A stretch of DNA of 64,000 bases from Longimicrobiales bacterium (GTDB taxonomy: Bacteria > Gemmatimonadota > Gemmatimonadetes > Longimicrobiales > Gaopeijiaceae), in the NCBI GenBank assembly GCA_965219445.1, contig CBDCNQ010000004.1, positions 1,152,001 to 1,216,000 of the forward strand, read 5' to 3'. Under the pieces are notes generated by a model. The model worked only from the letters and a program-made list of their open reading frames with translations. It was not told where the DNA came from and searched no databases. Positions 13,742 to 24,279 of the stretch are shown in pieces. The position numbers and the translations under genes were made by a program. Within the stretch, counting starts at the first letter, position 1. The number at the start of each line of letters is the position of its first letter.

Positions 13742-15249
13742 GCACATCCGCTGAACACATGAGCCAGCAGGACCTTGAGTCCTACCTCTGGGGCGCCGCG
13801 AAGCTCTTGCGGGGCCTGATCGATGCCGGCGACTACAAGCAGTACGTCTTCCCGTTGCTCTTCTTCAAGCGCCTGTCGGACGTGTGGGACGAGGAGTACC
13901 AACGCGCGCGCGACGAGACGGGTAACGCTCGGGCCACTGCCGATGACCGTTTCGTGATCCCCGACGGCGCACACTGGTCCGACGTCCGCAGTGCGTCTCG
14001 CGACGTGGGCCGGGCACTGCTTAAGGCCTTCCGCGCCATTGAGGCGGCCAACCCGGAGCGCCTGAACGGCGTCTTCGGGAATGCCTCGTGGACAGACAAG
14101 GCGCAGATGCCCGACGAGACGCTGAAGAATCTCATCGAGCACTTTTCACAGCACACCTTGAGCTTGGCCAAGGTCCCAGAGGACGAGCTGGGCAACGGCT
14201 ACGAGTACCTCATCAAGCAGTTCGCCGCCGACAGCGGCCACACCGCGCAGGAATTTTACACCAACCGCACCGTGGTCCATCTCATGACGCAGATGCTTGA
14301 GCCGCAACCGGGTGATCGCATCTACGATCCAACGGCCGGCACGGCCGGCATGCTCATCTCGTCGCTGGCGGAGGTGAAACGCCGAGGCGGTGACGCGCGC
14401 ACGCTGGGGCTATACGGCCAGGAGCTGATCCACATCACGGCCGCCATTGCCCGGATGAACTTGGTCCTGCACGGCGTGGAAGACTTCGAGATCGTCGCGG
14501 GCAACACGTTGAGCCAGCCAGCATTCATCGACCGCGACCACCTACGGACTTTCGACGTGGTCCTCGCCAATCCGCCGTACTCGATCAAGAAGTGGAACCG
14601 CGAGGCGTGGCAGCACGACCCCTGGGGCCGCAACTTCCTCGGGACGCCGCCGCAGGGCCGCGCCGACTACGCCTTCTTCCAGCACATCCTCAAGAGCCTC
14701 GACCCACAGACCGGCCGCTGCGCAATTCTCTTCCCGCATGGTGTGCTCTTCCGCAACGAAGAAGCGGCGATGCGGCGACAGCTTGTCGAGTTGGACCTTC
14801 TCGAGTGTGTGCTCGGCCTCGGACCGAACCTCTTCTATAACTCGCCCATGGAAGCCTGCGTGGTGGTGTGCCGAACACGGAAGCCCTCCGGCCGCGAGGG
14901 AAAGGTCTTGTTCATCGACGCTGTGCATGACGTGGCACGGGAGCGGGCCCAGAGCTTCCTCAAGGCCGAACATCAGCAGCGCATTCTCACCGCCTATCAG
15001 GCGTTTACCGATGACCCCGGCTTCGCCAAGGTCGCGACGGCGACGGAAATCCTCCAGAAGGACGGCAACCTGTCGATCTCACGCTACGTGCGGCCAGTTG
15101 CCGGTGCAGCCGACGACGCCAGCCCAGGCGGCGATCTGCGGAGCGCTTGGGCCGAGTTCGAAGCGAGCGGCCGCGATTTCTGGCCGCAGATGGACGCGCT
15201 CGTAGACATACTGGATGGCGTTGCCACAGAGGAGACGTCCGATGCTTAA
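13738..15249 (+). CDS. hsdM: Type I R-M methyltransferase subunit (NPPY, m6A type)
   Basis: EFYT, DPTAGTAG, NPPY, FPHGVLFR. Confidence 0.95.
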   Translation: MSTSAEHMSQQDLESYLWGAAKLLRGLIDAGDYKQYVFPLLFFKRLSDVWDEEYQRARDETGNARATADDRFVIPDGAHWSDVRSASRDVGRALLKAFRAIEAANPERLNGVFGNASWTDKAQMPDETLKNLIEHFSQHTLSLAKVPEDELGNGYEYLIKQFAADSGHTAQEFYTNRTVVHLMTQMLEPQPGDRIYDPTAGTAGMLISSLAEVKRRGGDARTLGLYGQELIHITAAIARMNLVLHGVEDFEIVAGNTLSQPAFIDRDHLRTFDVVLANPPYSIKKWNREAWQHDPWGRNFLGTPPQGRADYAFFQHILKSLDPQTGRCAILFPHGVLFRNEEAAMRRQLVELDLLECVLGLGPNLFYNSPMEACVVVCRTRKPSGREGKVLFIDAVHDVARERAQSFLKAEHQQRILTAYQAFTDDPGFAKVATATEILQKDGNLSISRYVRPVAGAADDASPGGDLRSAWAEFEASGRDFWPQMDALVDILDGVATEETSDA

Positions 15250-16423
15250 ATCGGCGTCCAAGAACGGGTGGATCAAGCACCGCTTCGATGAGATGGCGGT
15301 CGTGGTCAATGACCGCATCGATGACCCTGCCAAAGCCGACGTTGAGTACTACGTCGGCCTTGAGCATCTCGACTCTGAGTCACTCGCCATCCGTCGATGG
15401 GGAGCACCCTCTGACGTAGGTGCAACCAAACTGCGATTTCGGGCTGGTGACATCATCTTCGGTCGGCGGCGGGTGTACCAACGCAAGCTGGCGGTGGCCG
15501 ACTTTGACGGCATTTGTTCGGCGCACGCCATGGTACTCCGGGCGAAGCCAGCCGTCGCGTTGCCTGAGTTCCTACCATTTTTCATGCAGAGCGACCTCTT
15601 TATGGAGAGGGCGAGGGAGATTTCTGTCGGATCCCTGTCGCCGACAATCAACTGGAAGACCTTGGCGAAGGAAGAGTTCGCCCTGCCGCCGCTGGGAGAG
15701 CAGCGGCGGATTGCTGAGGTTCTAGGTGCAGCGGAGTCGGTGGTTGAGTCGCTACGTAACCTGAGACGATCGCTCCACGCTGTAGAAATCGGACACCTTG
15801 AGGACGTCATGCTCGGAATGCCTAATAGTGCACTTGTACCTGTGGCGACACTACTCCGCGAGCCGCCGCGAAACGGCATCTCCCCGAGTGTAAACTCCGA
15901 TGGAGAAGGCCTCAAGACAGTGAGTATCAGCGCGGTCAGTGACGGGATCTTCGATCCAACCGGGTGCATCAAACATGCGAAGATCGATGCTGACGTTGCC
16001 TGCCAGTTCTTTGTAAAGCGCGGGGATGCCTTTGTCATTCGTGGCAACGGGAATCGTCAACTTTGCGGCAAGGTGGGCCTCAGCGACGAATCCCACGATG
16101 AACTCTTCTACCCGGATCTTCTAATTCGGCTTCGTTTTGACACGAACAAAATTCTCCCGCAGTTCGCAGTAGCACAGTGGAACTTGCCCAGCGTCCATAG
16201 GCGGCTTAGTGCTAAAGCTAAGTCATCAAATGGGATCTGGAAGGTCAATGGACAAGACATCCGTGCTCACCATCTCTTCGCCCCTGCTCCTGCGGAACAG
16301 CGGAGCATGATGGGAGATCTCGCCACGCTTCGGGCGGGTCTTTGGAATGTCCGGGCACGCGAAGGAGCCGCTCAGCGTATCAAAGGGATATTAACGACAG
16401 AGGTTGGGTCAATAGGTGTGTAA
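15242..16423 (+). CDS. hsdS: Type I R-M specificity subunit; last codons supplied by the IS256 end
   Basis: Two TRDs with PPLGEQRRIA and PAEQR spacers; C-terminal EVGSIGV is read from the IR at 16400. Confidence 0.92.
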   Translation: MLKSASKNGWIKHRFDEMAVVVNDRIDDPAKADVEYYVGLEHLDSESLAIRRWGAPSDVGATKLRFRAGDIIFGRRRVYQRKLAVADFDGICSAHAMVLRAKPAVALPEFLPFFMQSDLFMERAREISVGSLSPTINWKTLAKEEFALPPLGEQRRIAEVLGAAESVVESLRNLRRSLHAVEIGHLEDVMLGMPNSALVPVATLLREPPRNGISPSVNSDGEGLKTVSISAVSDGIFDPTGCIKHAKIDADVACQFFVKRGDAFVIRGNGNRQLCGKVGLSDESHDELFYPDLLIRLRFDTNKILPQFAVAQWNLPSVHRRLSAKAKSSNGIWKVNGQDIRAHHLFAPAPAEQRSMMGDLATLRAGLWNVRAREGAAQRIKGILTTEVGSIGV

Positions 16424-16428
16424 ATGTT

Positions 16429-17673
16429 TCAGGCGGCGTTTTTCCGCTGTTGGGTTGAGACGGGCTTTCCGTCTTCGAACTTTCTTCCTTCAAATACGTC
16501 CTTGAGGAGGTGAGGAGCGTCGAGCCTTCTGAAGCGCTTCTCCGCCACCAAGAGCAGCTTCCAGATCAGCGCCGTAGCGCTCTCGACCCGCTTGAAGCGC
16601 TTCGCCGCCGTTGTCCTGAGCCGTACTGCGGCAAAGGGGCTCTCGACCACGTTCGTCGTGCGTAGATGCTTCCAGTGGTCCTCGGGGAAGTCGTAGAACG
16701 CCACCATCCGCTCCCAGTCGTCCTCGAGTACATCCACCGCCTTCGGATACCACGGTCTGTAGCGCCTGGCGAACGCCTCACGGGCCTTCAGCGCCTCGGA
16801 CCGCCTCGGTGCGTAGACCACGGTCCTGAGAAGGTCCTTCGCCTCGCTCTGCTCCCGCTGAGGCAGCCGGTCCAGCACGTTCCTCATCTTGTGGTTCCAG
16901 CACCGTTGCTCGCCCGCCTCAGGCCATACCTGCCGTACTGCGCCCCAGATCGCCGCGTTGCCGTCCGCCATCAAAAGCCGGGGCGCCTCGATGCCGCGTG
17001 CCTTCAGATCCCGCAACACCTCGGACCAGGACTCGACCGACTCTCGGTAGCCCGATCTCAGGGCCAACACCTCCTTCGTACCATCTCGCATCGCACCGAG
17101 AACCACCAGCAGCGCTGCCTTGTCCCGCTCGAGCCCCGCCTTCACGTAGATCCCGTCCGCCCAGACGTAGACGACCTCACGGTCGGCCAGCGAGCGCTTC
17201 GACCATTCCTCGAATTTCCTTGTCCATCCCGCCCGCAGCCGCCAAATCGAAGACTTCGACAACGGGGCCCCCTCGCCCAGCAGGCCCCGCATCGCCAGCT
17301 CGAAGTCTCCCTCCGCCAGCCCGTGCAGATACAGCTCCGGAAGCAGAGCACCCACCTCCTTCGTCCGTCGTGCGAACAACGGCAACACCCGACTCTCGAA
17401 CCGCTCCTCAATGCCTCGAACCCGGGGCCGTCGGAGCATGATCGTGCCCGAGCTCATCGCCAGCCGCCGAGCCTTGCCGTAGCCGTTGCGGTAGCCTGGC
17501 GCCGGGTCTACGACCGTCTTCCGCTCCGACTTCTCCCGGCCGAGCAACTCCGTCACTTCCTCCTCCAGAATCCGCTGGACCATCTCCTGGGCCTTCTCAC
17601 GAACCAGCGCTTCCAAGCACTCCCACGTCGGCGTGCTGGACTCACTCTCGGGTCCCACCATATTCTTCCTCAC
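16429..17673 (-). CDS. IS256-family DDE transposase
   Basis: YRNGY, WADG, MADG, QRCWNH, RTTNVVES. Confidence 0.95.
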   Translation of the reverse strand: MRKNMVGPESESSTPTWECLEALVREKAQEMVQRILEEEVTELLGREKSERKTVVDPAPGYRNGYGKARRLAMSSGTIMLRRPRVRGIEERFESRVLPLFARRTKEVGALLPELYLHGLAEGDFELAMRGLLGEGAPLSKSSIWRLRAGWTRKFEEWSKRSLADREVVYVWADGIYVKAGLERDKAALLVVLGAMRDGTKEVLALRSGYRESVESWSEVLRDLKARGIEAPRLLMADGNAAIWGAVRQVWPEAGEQRCWNHKMRNVLDRLPQREQSEAKDLLRTVVYAPRRSEALKAREAFARRYRPWYPKAVDVLEDDWERMVAFYDFPEDHWKHLRTTNVVESPFAAVRLRTTAAKRFKRVESATALIWKLLLVAEKRFRRLDAPHLLKDVFEGRKFEDGKPVSTQQRKNAA

Positions 17674-17766
17674 GAGGCATCGTTCCTTTCCCCCGGGCGC
17701 TCACCCGGGATTCGCTGGTTAACTTCTTACTACCTAGCGGAAAGGTACGTCGCCTCTTTTTTTACA

Positions 17767-19666
17767 ATCGGGATAGGGGAGGACCGGCGATCCCGGTCCT
17801 TCCCCTCCCACACCACCAGGCATGCGGGTCCGCACCTGGCGGTTCGGTGAGTTGAGGTCAGTACGGCGTGAGCCGGGGCACACCCAGCTCGTCGAAGTAC
17901 GCCCCTGGCAAGGCCGTGTGCAGGGCGTGGTGCGCGGCCACGTGCCACCAGCTTCGCGCGAACCGAGCAGCTCGCCAGGCGAGGTTCTCGCTCACACCGC
18001 GAGCCCTCAACTCCCGGTACGCTGTCCTTCCCCGTTTCCACTGGCGTAATTGCAACGTACGCAGCCGGCGGTGGATCCATTGGTCCAGGTCTCGGAAAAC
18101 CCCCGGTGTATCCGCTAAGCCGAAGTATGCCTTCCACCCCAGCACGTAGCGCCGTAGCTCTTCTGCCACCTGTTGCAGGCTCCGCCCGCCACTCCGGCTT
18201 GTAATCTGCCGGACTCGCTCCTTGAACTTCGTCAGGGCCTTCTTGCTGACCCGGCGCTTCACGACCTTCCCTGCCGCTACCCAGAAGCTGTAGCCCAGGA
18301 ACTGTCGATCCCACACTCGCGCCACCGCGCTCTTTTCCTCGTTGACCTGAAGCCGAAGTTTCCCGTACAAGTGCCTCAGCGCCTGCATCACACGTTGTCC
18401 TGCCCGCCTCGACCGCACGTATACATTGCAGTCATCGGCGTACCGGACAAACGCGTGTCCGCGTAGCTCCAACTCCTTGTCCACTTCGTCCAGGAGCACG
18501 TTCGCCAGCAACGGCGACAACGGTCCGCCCTGAGGCGTCCCCATGTGCCGCTCCATCACCACCCCGTTCGCCATGACTCCGGCTTCCAGGTAGCGACGGA
18601 GGATCCGCAGCATCGCCTTATCCTCGATCCGCTTTGCCAGCCGCCCCATCAGCACGTCGTGGTTCACCCGGTCGAAAAACTTCTCCAGGTCCACATCCAC
18701 CACCCATCGTCTCCCCTCCTGGATGTAGTGCTGCGCTTCGCGCACCGCATCGTGCGCTCGGCGCCCAGGCCGGAAGCCGTGGCTGTGCCGACTGAACGTC
18801 GGGTCGAACCTCGGTTGCATCACCTGCAGGATGGCTTGTTGGATGAACCGGTCCAGCACGGTCGGAATCCCCAACTCCCGGACCCCTCCCCCACTCTTCG
18901 GTATCTCCTGCCTTCGTACCGGCTTCGGTTGGTAGGTCCCCGCCAGCAACCGCTGTCGGATCTCCCCCCAGTGCCTGCGCAAGTACTCTGGCAGCTCCTC
19001 CACGTTCATCCCGTCGATGCCCGGACTGCCCTTATTCTGCCGCACGCGTTTCAACGCTCCTACGAGGTTGGCACGCCCGACCACCTCCTGCATCAGGAGA
19101 TGCTCGCTTCCTGAGCGCTCGTCTCCATGGGCCACCGTTCCGGCTTCGCCACTCCCCTCTACCTTCGGGGCTTCACCCCTATCCTCCAGTGGGAGCTCCA
19201 GTTGCCTGGACTCCTGGCGCATGGCCTTGCCGAGGTCCACGGTCGTCACGCTCTCCTCTCCGTTCGGCCCTTCGTCCGACAAAGCTGGGTCCAAGCGCAT
19301 CATGCACTTCGTCGGCCTACTATGGCCTCTGCTGACTTCTCGCTCCGCCGGCAGGCCCAACAGCGCAGTGCCGGCGTCACCCTTTCAGGCGTCAGGCGAG
19401 ACCTCCCCGGGTAAGAACGATGACCTTCCCCGCACAATCGCCGGATCTACGCCGCTTCCCCTTGGTCGCAGGAGCTTCGCGGTCAGTGGTCCGCTCGCCC
19501 CGGTCCGCAGCGCCTCGTATCCGGTTCCTGTTCGTCGACTCACGGGTTCGTTTCACGCTTCGTTCAGCGTACGCCTCACGACGAACGCCTTGCGCTTCCC
19601 TTCGGTCCCTGCGACCAGGTTCCGGGAGGACTTTCACCTCCAAGTCATCGCCCATGCCGGGCCCAC
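17767..19666 (-). ncRNA. Group II intron, class C (1900 nt)
   Basis: 5' GTGGGCCCGGCATGGG; short domain V with CGC triad; domain VI with bulged A; 3' end CCCGAT; removal restores the IS256 IRL exactly. Confidence 0.92.
17858..19249 (-). CDS. ltrA: Group II intron reverse transcriptase/maturase, no endonuclease domain
   Basis: RT0 SPGIDG, DLEKFFD, PQGGPLSP, YADD, FLGY, domain X; GTG start with RBS (start uncertain). Confidence 0.95.
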   Translation of the reverse strand: MTTVDLGKAMRQESRQLELPLEDRGEAPKVEGSGEAGTVAHGDERSGSEHLLMQEVVGRANLVGALKRVRQNKGSPGIDGMNVEELPEYLRRHWGEIRQRLLAGTYQPKPVRRQEIPKSGGGVRELGIPTVLDRFIQQAILQVMQPRFDPTFSRHSHGFRPGRRAHDAVREAQHYIQEGRRWVVDVDLEKFFDRVNHDVLMGRLAKRIEDKAMLRILRRYLEAGVMANGVVMERHMGTPQGGPLSPLLANVLLDEVDKELELRGHAFVRYADDCNVYVRSRRAGQRVMQALRHLYGKLRLQVNEEKSAVARVWDRQFLGYSFWVAAGKVVKRRVSKKALTKFKERVRQITSRSGGRSLQQVAEELRRYVLGWKAYFGLADTPGVFRDLDQWIHRRLRTLQLRQWKRGRTAYRELRARGVSENLAWRAARFARSWWHVAAHHALHTALPGAYFDELGVPRLTPY

Positions 19667-19841
19667 CACCCTTCTATGGGGCTGGCGGTCAAGACGCACC
19701 TTCCCCACGCGCCGTCGGCTCATTTTTTGACCGTCGGCGTCCGCATGGTTTGGATTGCCCGGTCGACGACTCAGGGTGGGGAGGGGTGCGCTCGCAGGGT
19801 CCGCATCGCAGTCCGGAAGACGTTCACAGCCGTCGCGTTCT

Positions 19842-19990
19842 CCGCTCTGGAGCGGGAACCATCCTTCTATCTGGGACTCTGTGGCCCATCGCTTCGTTCG
19901 GCTCTCCAGGGGTGCATAGCCTTTGAGTGGGGGCTTGGGCTCTCTGCCCCGGCCCACGGTGTGTATGGATGCTGTCCCCTGTAACCGGTT
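19842..19990 (-). ncRNA. Predicted bridge/seek RNA (target and donor loops)
   Basis: Two stem-bounded internal loops carrying TACACACC + TCAAAGG (target) and GATG + ATAGAAGG (donor); transcript ends unknown. Confidence 0.8.
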
Positions 19991-20058
19991 CGCTTCCGTT
20001 TCGTCGGACCCCATGTTGTGACCGCTTTCGACCCCACGCTCGCCGATCCCAGGCCGGT

Positions 20059-21114
20059 TTACTCCGTCGCTTCCAGTCTCTTGGGGTCGTACGCTTCGCC
20101 CGTGCGCCACACCGCTAGCACGATCGAGGCGAGCTGACGCGCGATCGTCAGCTTCGCCAGATTCGGCTTCGTGCCCCCCTCCAGGAGTCGCTCGTAGTGG
20201 CGGTACAAGGGCTCGTCCTCGGCCCGACCGATCACCGTCGTCGCTGCGCCCTTGAACACACGCTTCAGCGTGTGGTTGAAGTTCCGATTCAGCCCCCGCG
20301 TCTGCTGTACCGGTTCCCTTACCCACCGCCCACCCGGACCCCGCACCCAGTCCGACGAGCTCCGCATCACGACGCCCAGTCCGCAGTACGCCCAGAACCT
20401 GCTCCGGCTCTGGAACCGGTACGGCGTCACCACCACCGGCAGGAGCTCCGCCGTCCGGATCGGACCCAGACCCGGGCACGTCTTCAGCACATGCCACTCT
20501 CGATGCTTGCGTGCTTCCGCCAGCAACGCCTTCTCGGCCTTCGCCCTCAATGCCACGAGTGCGTCGTGCTCCTCGTACAGCAACCCGGCCGTCGTCCTGC
20601 TCGCTTCCGGCAGCTTGGCCAACCACTCCTCCCGGTCGCGCTTTAAGTAGACCGAGCGCCCCGCGCCGTAGGCCACTCCTCTCGAGCGCAGCACGCTCTT
20701 GAGCCGGTTCTTCACCCGCACCGTGTCGCCGACCAAGAAGTCGTAGCTCTTCGCCCGTTCCCCCAGCCGCCTGAACTGGCCCCGGTTCTTGTAGACCGTC
20801 GTCTCCAGTGATCCGATCCGCAGCTTCTCCGCCAGGGCAAACGCGTCCAGCTTGTCGGTCTTCGGGCCCCGGCTCTTGCCGACCCCCGCCACCGTCAGCT
20901 CCTCCACGTGCGGCTTCAGCACCTCGTACAGCCACCCCGACAGCGTCCCTTCTTCCAGGCATAAGTGCCGGTTCCTCGGAATCCCTCGCAGCACCTCGAT
21001 CAGCGCCCGCGCGTTCGTCTCCACCACCTGCGAGCCCAAGCGCTTGCCGCTGGGGCCTACAATCCCCAGCGTGCAGCTCGACGCGTGTGCGTCGAGTCCG
21101 ATATACCTCTCCAT
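20059..21114 (-). CDS. IS110-family DEDD recombinase
   Basis: GLDAH, LEEG, KTDKLDA, CPGLG, YCGL..RSS; RBS GAGGAGG. Confidence 0.95.
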   Translation of the reverse strand: MERYIGLDAHASSCTLGIVGPSGKRLGSQVVETNARALIEVLRGIPRNRHLCLEEGTLSGWLYEVLKPHVEELTVAGVGKSRGPKTDKLDAFALAEKLRIGSLETTVYKNRGQFRRLGERAKSYDFLVGDTVRVKNRLKSVLRSRGVAYGAGRSVYLKRDREEWLAKLPEASRTTAGLLYEEHDALVALRAKAEKALLAEARKHREWHVLKTCPGLGPIRTAELLPVVVTPYRFQSRSRFWAYCGLGVVMRSSSDWVRGPGGRWVREPVQQTRGLNRNFNHTLKRVFKGAATTVIGRAEDEPLYRHYERLLEGGTKPNLAKLTIARQLASIVLAVWRTGEAYDPKRLEATE

Positions 21115-21309
21115 GGGCATCCTCCTCTTGGGTAGGACGGGTTGGGTTGCTTGCTTGCGCGAATAATGATGAACGCGCACCCGCTCCCGGAGGAGAACGC
21201 CTCTTCGTCTTCGGGCTGCTTCGCTGCTGATCGGTACCGGTAGCGGTCGCCATGCCCCTATGATGCCTTTGATCCTAGCTCCCTTGGCGACACACAGGGT
21301 GTGGCCTGG

Positions 21310-24279
21310 ATGGGTAGCTTCAACGAAGCCAATACGGTCGAAGCTTTCATCCGAGACCGTCTATGTGGCGGTACCACACATCACACCGCCGTCCGCTCCG
21401 GCCTGGCCCATCGTCACAGTCAAGTGTCCGGTCTTGGCTGGCACTACCTCGCACCACAGAATCTGTCACGCCAGCCGCACGAAGTCCTCGTTGAGGATCG
21501 TCTCCGTGAGGCGTTGATTCGACTGAACCCGGAAATTGCCGAACAGCCTGACCGTGCGGACGACGTCCTGTACAAGCTCCGCGCCATCATCATGGGCGTA
21601 CGTAGCGACGGGCTTGTCAAGGCCAACGAGGGGTTTGCGGCTTGGCTGACCGGCGAGCGGTCGATGCCGTTTGGCGAGCATGGCGAGCACGTGACCGTCC
21701 GGCTGATTGACTTCGAGGACCTCAAGCGCAATCAATACGTCGTCACCACCCAGTTCACCTACCGTGCCGGCGCGACCGAGAAGCGGGCGGATCTCGTCCT
21801 GCTGGTCAACGGCATTCCCCTGGCGGTAATCGAAGCGAAGACTCCCGTCCGGGCCAGCCAAAGCTGGTTCGACGGCGCACTCCAGATCCATGACGACTAC
21901 GAACGCAATGTCCCGGAGCTGTTCGTTCCAAACGTCATCTCCATCGCCACTGAAGGCAAAGAGTTCCGGTACGGGTCCATCGGTCTGCCGGTTGAACTGT
22001 GGGGACCATGGCGCATCGAGGCGGACGCTGAGACACCGGCCCTTGTGCGCATCGCCCAAGCCGTCGACTCGATGCTACGGCCGAATGTCGTTCTGGATCT
22101 ACTGGCCAACTTCACAGCGTACGCCACGGACAAGAATAAGCGCCGCATCAAGATAGTTGCGCGCCATCAGCAGTACGAGGCCATCAATCGAATCATGGAG
22201 CGTGTGGTCGCGGGCCACCCGAAAAAGGGTCTCATTTGGCATTTTCAAGGTTCGGGCAAGTCCCTCCTGATGCTCTTCGCCGCCCGCAAGTTGCGACTGC
22301 ATGCGGCGCTCAAGAATCCCACCGTGATGGTCGTGGTCGATCGCGTCGACCTCGACAGCCAGATTTCGAGCACGTTCTACGCCGCCGACACACCGAACTT
22401 GGTGAAGGCCGACAGTCGGGTCGAACTGCAGCGCCTGCTGACGCAGGACACTCGAAAGATCATCATCACGACGATCTTCAAGTTTGCGGAGGCCGAGGGT
22501 GTCCTGAACGACCGCGGCAACATCATCGCGATGGTCGACGAAGCCCATCGCACGCAGGAAGGCGATCTTGGCCGCACGATGCGCGAGGCGCTACCAAACG
22601 CTTTTCTGTTCGGCCTGACCGGCACACCGATCAACCGCGCTGACCGCAACACGTTTTACGCCTTTGGGGCCGAGGAGGACCAAGCTGGCTACATGAGCCG
22701 CTACGGTTTCGAGGAATCGATCCGCGACGGCGCCACGATGCCGCTCCACTTCGAGCCGCGGTTACTGGATCTGCACATCGACAAGGAAGCCATCGACCAG
22801 GCGTTCACGCAGCTCACGGGTCGCCTAAGCGACCTGGACAGGGACCAGTTGGCGAAGACTGCCGCGAAGATGGCGGTACTGGTGAAGTCCCCGGAACGGA
22901 TCCAGACGGTCTGCGCCGACATCGCGCGGCACTTCCAAGAGAAGGTCGCGCCGCACGGCTTCGGCGCCCAGGTGGTCACCTTCGACCGCGAAAGCTGTGT
23001 GCTCTACAAGGAAATGCTCGACGAGCACCTGCCGTCTGAGATGTCGGACATCGTGATGACGGTCAACAGCGGCGAGGACCAATATGCCGCGTACCGTCGC
23101 GACCGCGACGCCGAAGAGAAGCTGCTTTACCGATTTCGCGATCCAGCCGACCCACTGAAGATCTTGATCGTCACCTCGAAACTGCTGACGGGGTTCGACG
23201 CGCCTATTCTTCAGGCGATGTACCTCGACAAGCCGCTTCGAGACCATACGCTGCTACAGGCGATCTGCCGCACGAATCGGCCCTTCGGTGAGGTCAAGAC
23301 GCACGGGCTCATCGTTGACTATCTTGGGGTCTTCGACGATGTGGCGCAGGCGATTCAGTTCGACGAGGAAGGAATCACCAGGGTCATCAAGAACATCAGC
23401 GAGTTGGCTGGTCGTCTGCCCGAGGCTGTGCAGAAGTGCCTCGCGTACTTCCCGGACGTCGATCGGATCGTTACCGGTTACGAGGGCCTCGTGGCGGCGC
23501 AGGCCTGCTTACCGACCAACGACGTGCGAGATCACTTCGCCGCCGACTACAGCTACCTGGCGCGATTGTGGGAGGCCCTCTCACCGGATCCTGTCCTGAG
23601 TGCGCACGAGACCGACTACCGCTGGCTCACGCAGGTCTACGAGTCTGTGCGACCTTCGACGGGCACGGGCCGCCTTCTGTGGCATGCACTTGGCCCGAAG
23701 ACCATTGAGCTGATTCACGAGCACGTCCACGTTGACGCCATCAGAGACGACCTCGAAACGCTCGTGCTCGACGCCGATCTCCTTGAGGCTGTGCTCGGCG
23801 CGCCCGATCCAGGGAAAAAAGCGAAGGAGATCGAGATCAAGGTCTCGCGGTGGCTTCGGAAGCGTCTGCACGACCCTCGGTTCAAAGAGCTTGGAGAACG
23901 GCTGGAGGCGCTCAAGGAGAGACATGAGCGGGGACTGCTCACGAGTGTTGAGTTCTTGAAGGAACTGCTTAATCTCGCGCGGGATGTCGTGTCAGCCGAT
24001 CGCACGGTGCCTCCGATGGAACGCGAAGAGCAAGGGAAGGCGGCTCTTACCCAGCTCTTTGAAGAGGCGAGAAATCCCGACACTCCGATCATCGTCGAGC
24101 GCGTTGTGACCGACATCGACGAGATCGTGCGGTACGTTCGGTTCGACGGCTGGCAGAGTACGCATGCGGGCGAACGCGAGGTCAAGCTAGCCCTTCGAAA
24201 AACGCTCTTCAAGTACAAGCTCCATCAAGATCAGGAGCTGTTCAACAGAGCGTACGGCTACATCAGAGAGTATTACTAA
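21310..24279 (+). CDS. hsdR: Type I restriction endonuclease subunit R
   Basis: D..NG..EAK nuclease, QGSGKS, DEAH, TGTP, TGFD, QAICRTNR. Confidence 0.95.
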   Translation: MGSFNEANTVEAFIRDRLCGGTTHHTAVRSGLAHRHSQVSGLGWHYLAPQNLSRQPHEVLVEDRLREALIRLNPEIAEQPDRADDVLYKLRAIIMGVRSDGLVKANEGFAAWLTGERSMPFGEHGEHVTVRLIDFEDLKRNQYVVTTQFTYRAGATEKRADLVLLVNGIPLAVIEAKTPVRASQSWFDGALQIHDDYERNVPELFVPNVISIATEGKEFRYGSIGLPVELWGPWRIEADAETPALVRIAQAVDSMLRPNVVLDLLANFTAYATDKNKRRIKIVARHQQYEAINRIMERVVAGHPKKGLIWHFQGSGKSLLMLFAARKLRLHAALKNPTVMVVVDRVDLDSQISSTFYAADTPNLVKADSRVELQRLLTQDTRKIIITTIFKFAEAEGVLNDRGNIIAMVDEAHRTQEGDLGRTMREALPNAFLFGLTGTPINRADRNTFYAFGAEEDQAGYMSRYGFEESIRDGATMPLHFEPRLLDLHIDKEAIDQAFTQLTGRLSDLDRDQLAKTAAKMAVLVKSPERIQTVCADIARHFQEKVAPHGFGAQVVTFDRESCVLYKEMLDEHLPSEMSDIVMTVNSGEDQYAAYRRDRDAEEKLLYRFRDPADPLKILIVTSKLLTGFDAPILQAMYLDKPLRDHTLLQAICRTNRPFGEVKTHGLIVDYLGVFDDVAQAIQFDEEGITRVIKNISELAGRLPEAVQKCLAYFPDVDRIVTGYEGLVAAQACLPTNDVRDHFAADYSYLARLWEALSPDPVLSAHETDYRWLTQVYESVRPSTGTGRLLWHALGPKTIELIHEHVHVDAIRDDLETLVLDADLLEAVLGAPDPGKKAKEIEIKVSRWLRKRLHDPRFKELGERLEALKERHERGLLTSVEFLKELLNLARDVVSADRTVPPMEREEQGKAALTQLFEEARNPDTPIIVERVVTDIDEIVRYVRFDGWQSTHAGEREVKLALRKTLFKYKLHQDQELFNRAYGYIREYY

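Follow-up and report, generated by a model that had tools for sequence, protein, structure and literature searches.

An RNA-guided mechanism of insertion, and the habit of IS1111 elements of targeting the ends of other elements, are already published. IS4321 and IS5075, of the IS1111 group, reportedly insert in the terminal inverted repeats of the Tn21 family, as Partridge and Hall are said to have described in 2003. Also, in the portions of the literature available to us, attC and REP sites are published targets of IS1111 elements. As far as the accessible text goes, ISEc11, ISKpn4, ISPst6 and ISPa11 are seekRNA elements, and ISEc21, from the IS110 group, has the catalytic-codon region of IS3-family elements as its natural target (PMC11187229). 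Circle formation, a junction promoter, dual-strand pairing and serine strand exchange come from the work on IS621 and ISEc11, in the sections available (PMC11208160, PMC11208158, PMC13626964, PMC11187229). An IS256 end as target of an IS110/IS1111 element was not found in the literature searched, which comprised neither ISfinder nor subscription journals, and the word IS256 is absent from the text and searchable supplements of PMC11208160 and PMC11187229 and from the main text of 10.64898/2026.08.14.744561.

Here we describe an IS1111-type element in a window of 64,000 nucleotides (the whole stretch of DNA analysed, to which plain coordinates refer) from a Longimicrobiales bacterium. A first-pass annotation had proposed that an RNA from the non-coding end of this element is programmed to attack the IRL (left terminal repeat) of an IS256-family insertion sequence. 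With a probability of about 0.9, we consider that the right-end RNA programs the recombinase to insert the element in a 14-bp site (TCAAAG/GGTGTGTA) of this IRL. Sequence comparison is the source of the element ends, the target, the near-exclusive use of that site, the covariation of guides and flanks and the conserved stems.

Anatomy of the locus

Read on the minus strand, the locus is a nested stack in which the outer IRL of an IS256 (21281-21266) is followed by an IS110-family element (21265-19670), the bases GTG, a group II intron (19666-17767) and the remainder of the IS256 (17766-16400).

16400-17766, minus strand: IS256-family body, with inner IRL from 17766, transposase 17673-16429 (414 aa) and IRR 16424-16400
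17767-19666, minus strand: group II intron, RT/maturase ORF 19360-17858, inserted into the right target
19667-19669, minus strand: GTG, IRL bases separating the IS1111 element from the intron
19670-21265, minus strand: IS1111-type IS110 element, CATCAT...ATAGAAGG, 1596 bp
19670-20058, minus strand: long right non-coding end, 389 nt (the left end has 151 nt)
19676-19687, plus strand: right sub-terminal inverted repeat ATGGGGCTGGCG, imperfect
19687-19692, minus strand: -35-like TTGACC, paired with CATCAT at 21265-21260
20059-21114, minus strand: DEDD recombinase, 351 aa, Pfam PF01548 and PF02371
21248-21261, minus strand: left sub-terminal inverted repeat ATAGGGGCATGGCG
21266-21281, minus strand: outer 16 bp of the IS256 IRL, left target plus core

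The recombinase exceeds the cut-offs of both Pfam domains (39.7 bits for PF01548, 32.4 bits for PF02371), and its residues D8/E54/D87/D90 and S253, which align to the catalytic residues of IS621, are invariant in 24 homologs. Given that its score with the NCBIfam equivalog NF033542 (112 bits) lies under the cut-off of 140, its sequence places it in a divergent IS110 clade. Among 72,556 plasmids its best matches show at most 27% identity, and the relatives of the element at 95-99% identity belong to Longimicrobiales. The long right non-coding end, the order of the guides, with the top-strand guide first, and the predicted junction promoter mark the element as IS1111-type. It has the IS110 trait of inserting in one site and one orientation without a true target duplication, only the GG core being shared.

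The left junction reads GAGCTAGGATCAAAGG/CATCAT (21281-21266/21265), and the right one ATAGAAGG/GTG (19677-19670/19669-19667), followed by the intron and then by TGTAAAA (17766). In 29 of 30 relatives GG closes the left junction; at the right junction the base after ATAGAAG differs among them (dinucleotide GG in 20, GA in 4, GT in 3, GC in 2, AG in 1). From this pattern a crossover between the two core Gs is probable, with element ends at 21266 and 19671. The sub-terminal repeats share 12 matched bases with two 1-nt gaps and would lie 10 bp apart in the predicted circle; the junctions of the relatives suggest extensions of about 5+5 outside these repeats, as against 7+3, with perfect or near-perfect repeats of 11-13 bp, in the IS1111 group. 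Only in the predicted circular form does a TTGACC-17-CATCAT promoter arise, as a sequence match, and TTGAC at this spacing is kept in 26 of 30 distinct relatives; a promoter scan of the linear sequence found none. A circle junction of abutted ends was seen neither in the genome nor in the contigs of four read runs, contigs being assemblies that drop rare forms.

Additionally, a tandem duplication of the last 511 bp of the element, RNA region included, stands behind a complete right end at G000 C5:1612735-1613245. Three copies in G374 (L305, L307, L308) fall short of full length by about 70 bp, carry a break in their interior around position 1121-1166 and are probably defective. In distant relatives (L002, L017, L030, L036, L038, L090), 3 nt are repeatedly duplicated at the right end (AGAAG AAG).

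The transposase of the host IS256 scores 295 bits with NCBIfam NF033543 (cut-off 150). Its IRL and IRR are alike over 24 bp; the IRR reads TCAATAGG and is not targeted. Target duplications of 8 bp, within the 8-9 bp usual for the IS256 family, flank 10 of the 24 IS256 copies that have both ends and are absent at this copy. A type I restriction locus encloses the whole stack, with hsdS on one side and hsdR on the other (15215-16423 and 21301-24279 of the window). Since the hsdS frame terminates inside the IS256 IRR and the composite lacks a perfect target duplication (6/8), the locus may be rearranged.

Regarding the intron, it was the sole Rfam match over 16300-21400. As 12 of its 13 copies are located elsewhere, mostly behind hairpins and ending in GTG or GTT, we discarded it as a component of the RNA-guided system. 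The intron destroys the right target, and for this reason it most likely arrived after the IS1111 element, via the hairpin in the right end of the latter. In two other genomes, IRLs (L276 in G264, L287 in G374) are broken after GGTGTG by other DNA that begins with GTGTGCCGTGG and may be another group II intron; several parasites may thus share the IS256 IRL as a hot spot.

Guide RNA and its covariation with flanks

The right non-coding end holds two hairpins with guide segments and a third one downstream.

19838-19858, minus strand: third hairpin (TTC CCGC...GCGG A GAA), slightly outside the originally flagged 19842-19990
19859-19901, minus strand: donor-binding hairpin, closed by CCG/TGG
19870-19863, minus strand: left donor guide ATAGAAGG
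19890-19887, minus strand: putative right donor guide GATG
19908-19980, minus strand: target-binding hairpin with internal loop, from covariation
19920-19926, minus strand: left target guide TCAAAGG, in the 9-nt loop ACTCAAAGG (19928-19920), which would pair with the bottom strand of the left target plus core
19958-19965, minus strand: right target guide TACACACC, complementary to the top strand GGTGTGTA

All four guide segments named by the first-pass annotation (TCAAAGG, TACACACC, ATAGAAGG and GATG) lie where it had placed them. The right target guide is 5' of the left one, so that the top-strand guide precedes the bottom-strand guide. When the 369-nt end is shuffled 20,000 times with its dinucleotides preserved, single guides arise 524, 38 and 48 times, and both target guides together never. 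The fold of the single sequence, which the annotation had suggested as a check, turned out unremarkable (z of -0.95 and -1.18), and support for the RNA structure comes from covariation: among 44 relatives, 95% of cells are paired and 13 of 30 pairs show double changes, which exceeds all 500 shuffles and all slid controls. GAAC/GTTC, originally taken as the closing pair of the second loop, was discarded, as none of its four pairs has a compensatory change and 500 of 500 shuffles reach as much; TTC pairs instead with the downstream GAA of the third hairpin. CCG/TGG closes the donor loop better, with 99% of cells paired, although there are no double changes there either. The single RNA run, a small-share one available as contigs, covered 286 nt of the ORF and left the non-coding end uncovered; its coverage does not speak for habitat or expression.

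Covariation of guides with flanks was followed in 189 related loci, 171 of them with a near-full gene, among which feature calls were incomplete (left end 107, target loop 119, right end 72). The left target guide was compared over five non-core positions in 75 of 76 rows (L135, which has no core, was left out) with 32 distinct guides, and it matches the left flank at 4.41 of 5 positions against 2.70 +/- 0.15 after shuffling, a value reached by 0 of 10,000 shuffles; the match spans about 8 nt and is gone at position -9. The right target guide was compared in all 70 rows, with 34 distinct guides, and the better of its two registers was taken for the data as for the null; its agreement with the right flank is 5.41 of 7 against 2.94 +/- 0.20 (0 of 10,000), and the test is also significant in each single register. 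Thus both target guides covary with the flanks, a check that the annotation had suggested, in shuffles that ignore kinship; the flanks are host DNA, which switches together with the guides among relatives at 77-82% identity. The match is poor in several relatives (L062, L100, L030, L057, L089).

The donor loop, said to match the circle junction of the element itself, fared unevenly. Its left guide follows the donor end more closely than after shuffling (6.26 of 7 against 5.91 shuffled, 47 distinct, 0 of 10,000, four mis-parsed rows being kept); the changes are few but concordant, and at positions 3, 5 and 7 guide and end change in pairs. The putative right guide GATG shows no covariation in the relatives: ATG/CAT is nearly invariant and the first base varies independently.

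These data bear on whether the recombinase protein, or a structure of the DNA at the IS256 end, might choose the site, with the RNA matching only by coincidence. A logic of sequence plus structure is reported for another IS110 (10.64898/2026.03.19.712850), so that structure may contribute, and the RNA reads noted above come from the ORF and none from the RNA region. Nevertheless, relatives at 77-82% identity (L012, L013, L163, L164) use other sites with guides altered to match, and the two target guides do not arise together in the shuffled ends, which makes an incidental match very improbable.

Among other members of the clade, the commonest guide programme targets a motif in sites of the GGATAGG/AAATCCAA type. 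Three such loci (L026, L049, L070) adjoin Y2 (IS91-like) transposase frames. Where relatives have other guides, no Mutator transposase came up in a Pfam search of 150 of their 172 flanking frames. At G000 C2:661602, GGATAGG, the commonest target of the clade, is followed by a diverged piece of a left end, the trace of another relative.

Occupancy of target sites in the genome

BLAST gave 25 matches to the left end. With a diverged fragment of 59 nt set aside, 24 are true left ends; 23 of these lie behind an IS256 IRL at the identical position, and the remaining one is off-target (C2:336726, ACTCAAAGG/TGTGACG). The 25 right-end matches comprise 21 that continue directly into GTGTGTAAAA, the intron-split copy, the off-target copy, one tandem partial duplication and one truncated end. 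In agreement, the right flank that the annotation had reconstructed by removing the intron is real: besides these 21 copies, an intact empty IRL is present in 15 of 200 family genomes, and an occupied junction in 6 of these 200. The guides are identical in all 23 RNA copies found. This gathering of flanks, together with the covariation in relatives, bears out the targeting of the IS256 IRL by a programmed RNA.

The intact empty target has no occurrence in this genome, and its five free IRLs are each altered within the 14-bp target; a chromosomal match of 12/14 at C1:205750 is empty. None of 30 IRRs is occupied, so that the preference for IRL over IRR claimed at first holds here, but it is not absolute, given the off-target copy and a sibling (L010) that abuts an IRR. 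Off-target copies (C2:336726, L300, L211) still match both guides in part and read GG/TGTG, one base shorter than the IRL site, from which we conclude that the right target guide can slip in register.

It is possible to imagine a different history for the copies, with one or a few RNA-guided insertions in an IRL and then copying of the 3-kb IS256::IS1111 composite by the IS256 transposase, the element being a passenger and not a steriliser. Transposase and IRR are intact in the composites, which also retain the outer 16 bp of the IRL, and in G264 all five share a G-to-A change at the right junction that is absent from 10 free IRLs, four of the elements differing by 0-3 nt, which fits composite spread. 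Composite copying would couple host and element alleles; however, 11 identical host IS256s hold 11 different element alleles (1-31 differences, median 16), and perfect 8-bp target duplications at 8 of 19 full composites do not discriminate, both counts carrying the caveat that the assembly may be a population consensus with flanks swapped between several copies. Additionally, diverged hosts (0 to 154 differences, plus subtypes at about 78-80%) are hit at the same base. These alleles and hosts favour repeated homing over composite copying in this genome, and the passenger account seems unlikely to us. Swaps of IS256 flanks in G000 composites (e.g. C2:416881, C2:467815) are either real recombination or assembly across repeats.

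Sibling elements and altered target sites

In genomes with occupied junctions, intact free IRLs are scarce in some cases (0 of 5 here, 0 of 10 in G264, 0 of 1 in G137, 1 of 4 in G426, 1 of 2 in G345), compared with 29 of 31 in a set of nine genomes in which, G240 being left aside, no junction is occupied, a biased pick as they were chosen for holding an intact target. This is suggestive of an escape of IS256 through altered IRLs. We give roughly even odds to the altered free IRLs being instead ordinary allele variation of IS256 or scars of imprecise excision, not selected escape. In this sense, G240 has 37 of 40 free IRLs altered and 3 intact with no occupied canonical junction, and intact free IRLs persist beside occupied ones in G374 (4 of 4 beside 6) and G392 (42 of 44 beside 1). 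Furthermore, the free IRLs TCAGAAGG, TCGAAGG and TCAAGG (G000 C4:199262, C4:1221680 and C5:267938) are readable as the left target joined to the right end of the element, in IS256 bodies 100% identical to occupied hosts, and are possible imprecise-excision scars that also block re-insertion.

Siblings differ in their guides. G345 has one copy with the canonical guide in the canonical IRL, and a 94% sibling with left target guide AACCAAAGG in the variant GGAACAAAGG (three copies) plus one off-target; this link between guide variant and site variant is a correlation and not a Watson-Crick repair. The IRR-abutting L010 (95% sibling, guides ATCACTAGG/TACGCACC, the altered left target guide being ATCACTAGG) is a single copy with a mismatched right flank. 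An IRR-type junction (L240) was seen in 1 of 314 family genomes, G346, where 7 IRLs are still intact and 9 IRRs are empty. The 61% relative L088 lies in the IRL of another IS256-family element, on the opposite strand and with matching guides; the short frame there has a weak Pfam match, over the cut-off, and no NCBIfam match. The short pattern for fetching sequence contexts gave no excess over its control.

From the AACCAAAGG sibling of G345, the ATCACTAGG sibling at the IRR and the independent IRL targeting of L088, a retuning of guides may be read. Tentatively, and with the odds somewhat against it, an arms race can be envisaged in which the element puts IS256 out of action through the split IRL and fills all the intact copies, IS256 survives via target changes and siblings retune their guides.

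Discussion

By analogy with the biochemistry of IS621 and ISEc11, the element would excise as a circle, whose joined ends would form the TTGACC-17-CATCAT promoter and transcribe recombinase and RNA. The target loop would then pair with the two strands of the IRL, the donor loop would pair with the junction of the circle, and serine-mediated strand exchange would insert the element. The element probably spread for the most part by homing, time after time, into IS256 copies that were already there, and in the end no intact site remained. The split IRL probably immobilises the host IS256, and the intron would have entered this copy afterwards.

Our study adds a divergent clade of bridge recombinases with a fully readable set of recombinase, guide, donor and target. 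The natural table of on-target, off-target and avoided sites helps to learn the RNA pairing rules of IS1111 elements, such as core tolerance and the register slip of the right guide. Additionally, this may be a case of one insertion sequence capping the spread of another, and the allele data render escape and counter-adaptation directly testable.

Like IS4321 and IS5075, as these are reported, the present element has sub-terminal repeats and targets the terminal repeat of another transposable element in one position and orientation; here, however, the target is an IS256-family IRL, the recombinase clade is distant (plasmid hits at most 27%) and a genome-wide saturation is readable. With the seekRNA elements, as far as the available text describes them (PMC11187229), it shares the long non-coding region downstream of tnp, a top-strand guide before a bottom-strand guide, a spacing of about 10 bp from one sub-terminal repeat to the other in the circular form, a junction promoter (predicted here) and natural reprogramming, seen there in ISEc11/ISXne4. 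Unlike in that description, the sub-terminal repeats of our element are imperfect, its relatives place the crossover at about 5+5 instead of 7+3, the target loop is followed by a conserved loop that matches the donor, and the targets differ. The bridge RNA system of IS621, in the accessible sections (PMC11208160, PMC11208158, PMC13626964), has in common with it the DEDD and serine catalytic residues, two internal loops for target and donor and a short core at both junctions, whereas here the RNA is in the right end with the guide order reversed, only the first base of the GG core is firmly shared, the right target guide has 8-9 nt in two or three registers, and similarity is very low (E 2.4e-05). 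ISEc21, from what is accessible, is also an RNA-guided insertion sequence that naturally targets another one, but with an upstream RNA and a target in a coding region instead of a terminal repeat. What the present case adds is the saturation of the IS256 target, the altered free IRLs and the seemingly retuned guides of the siblings.
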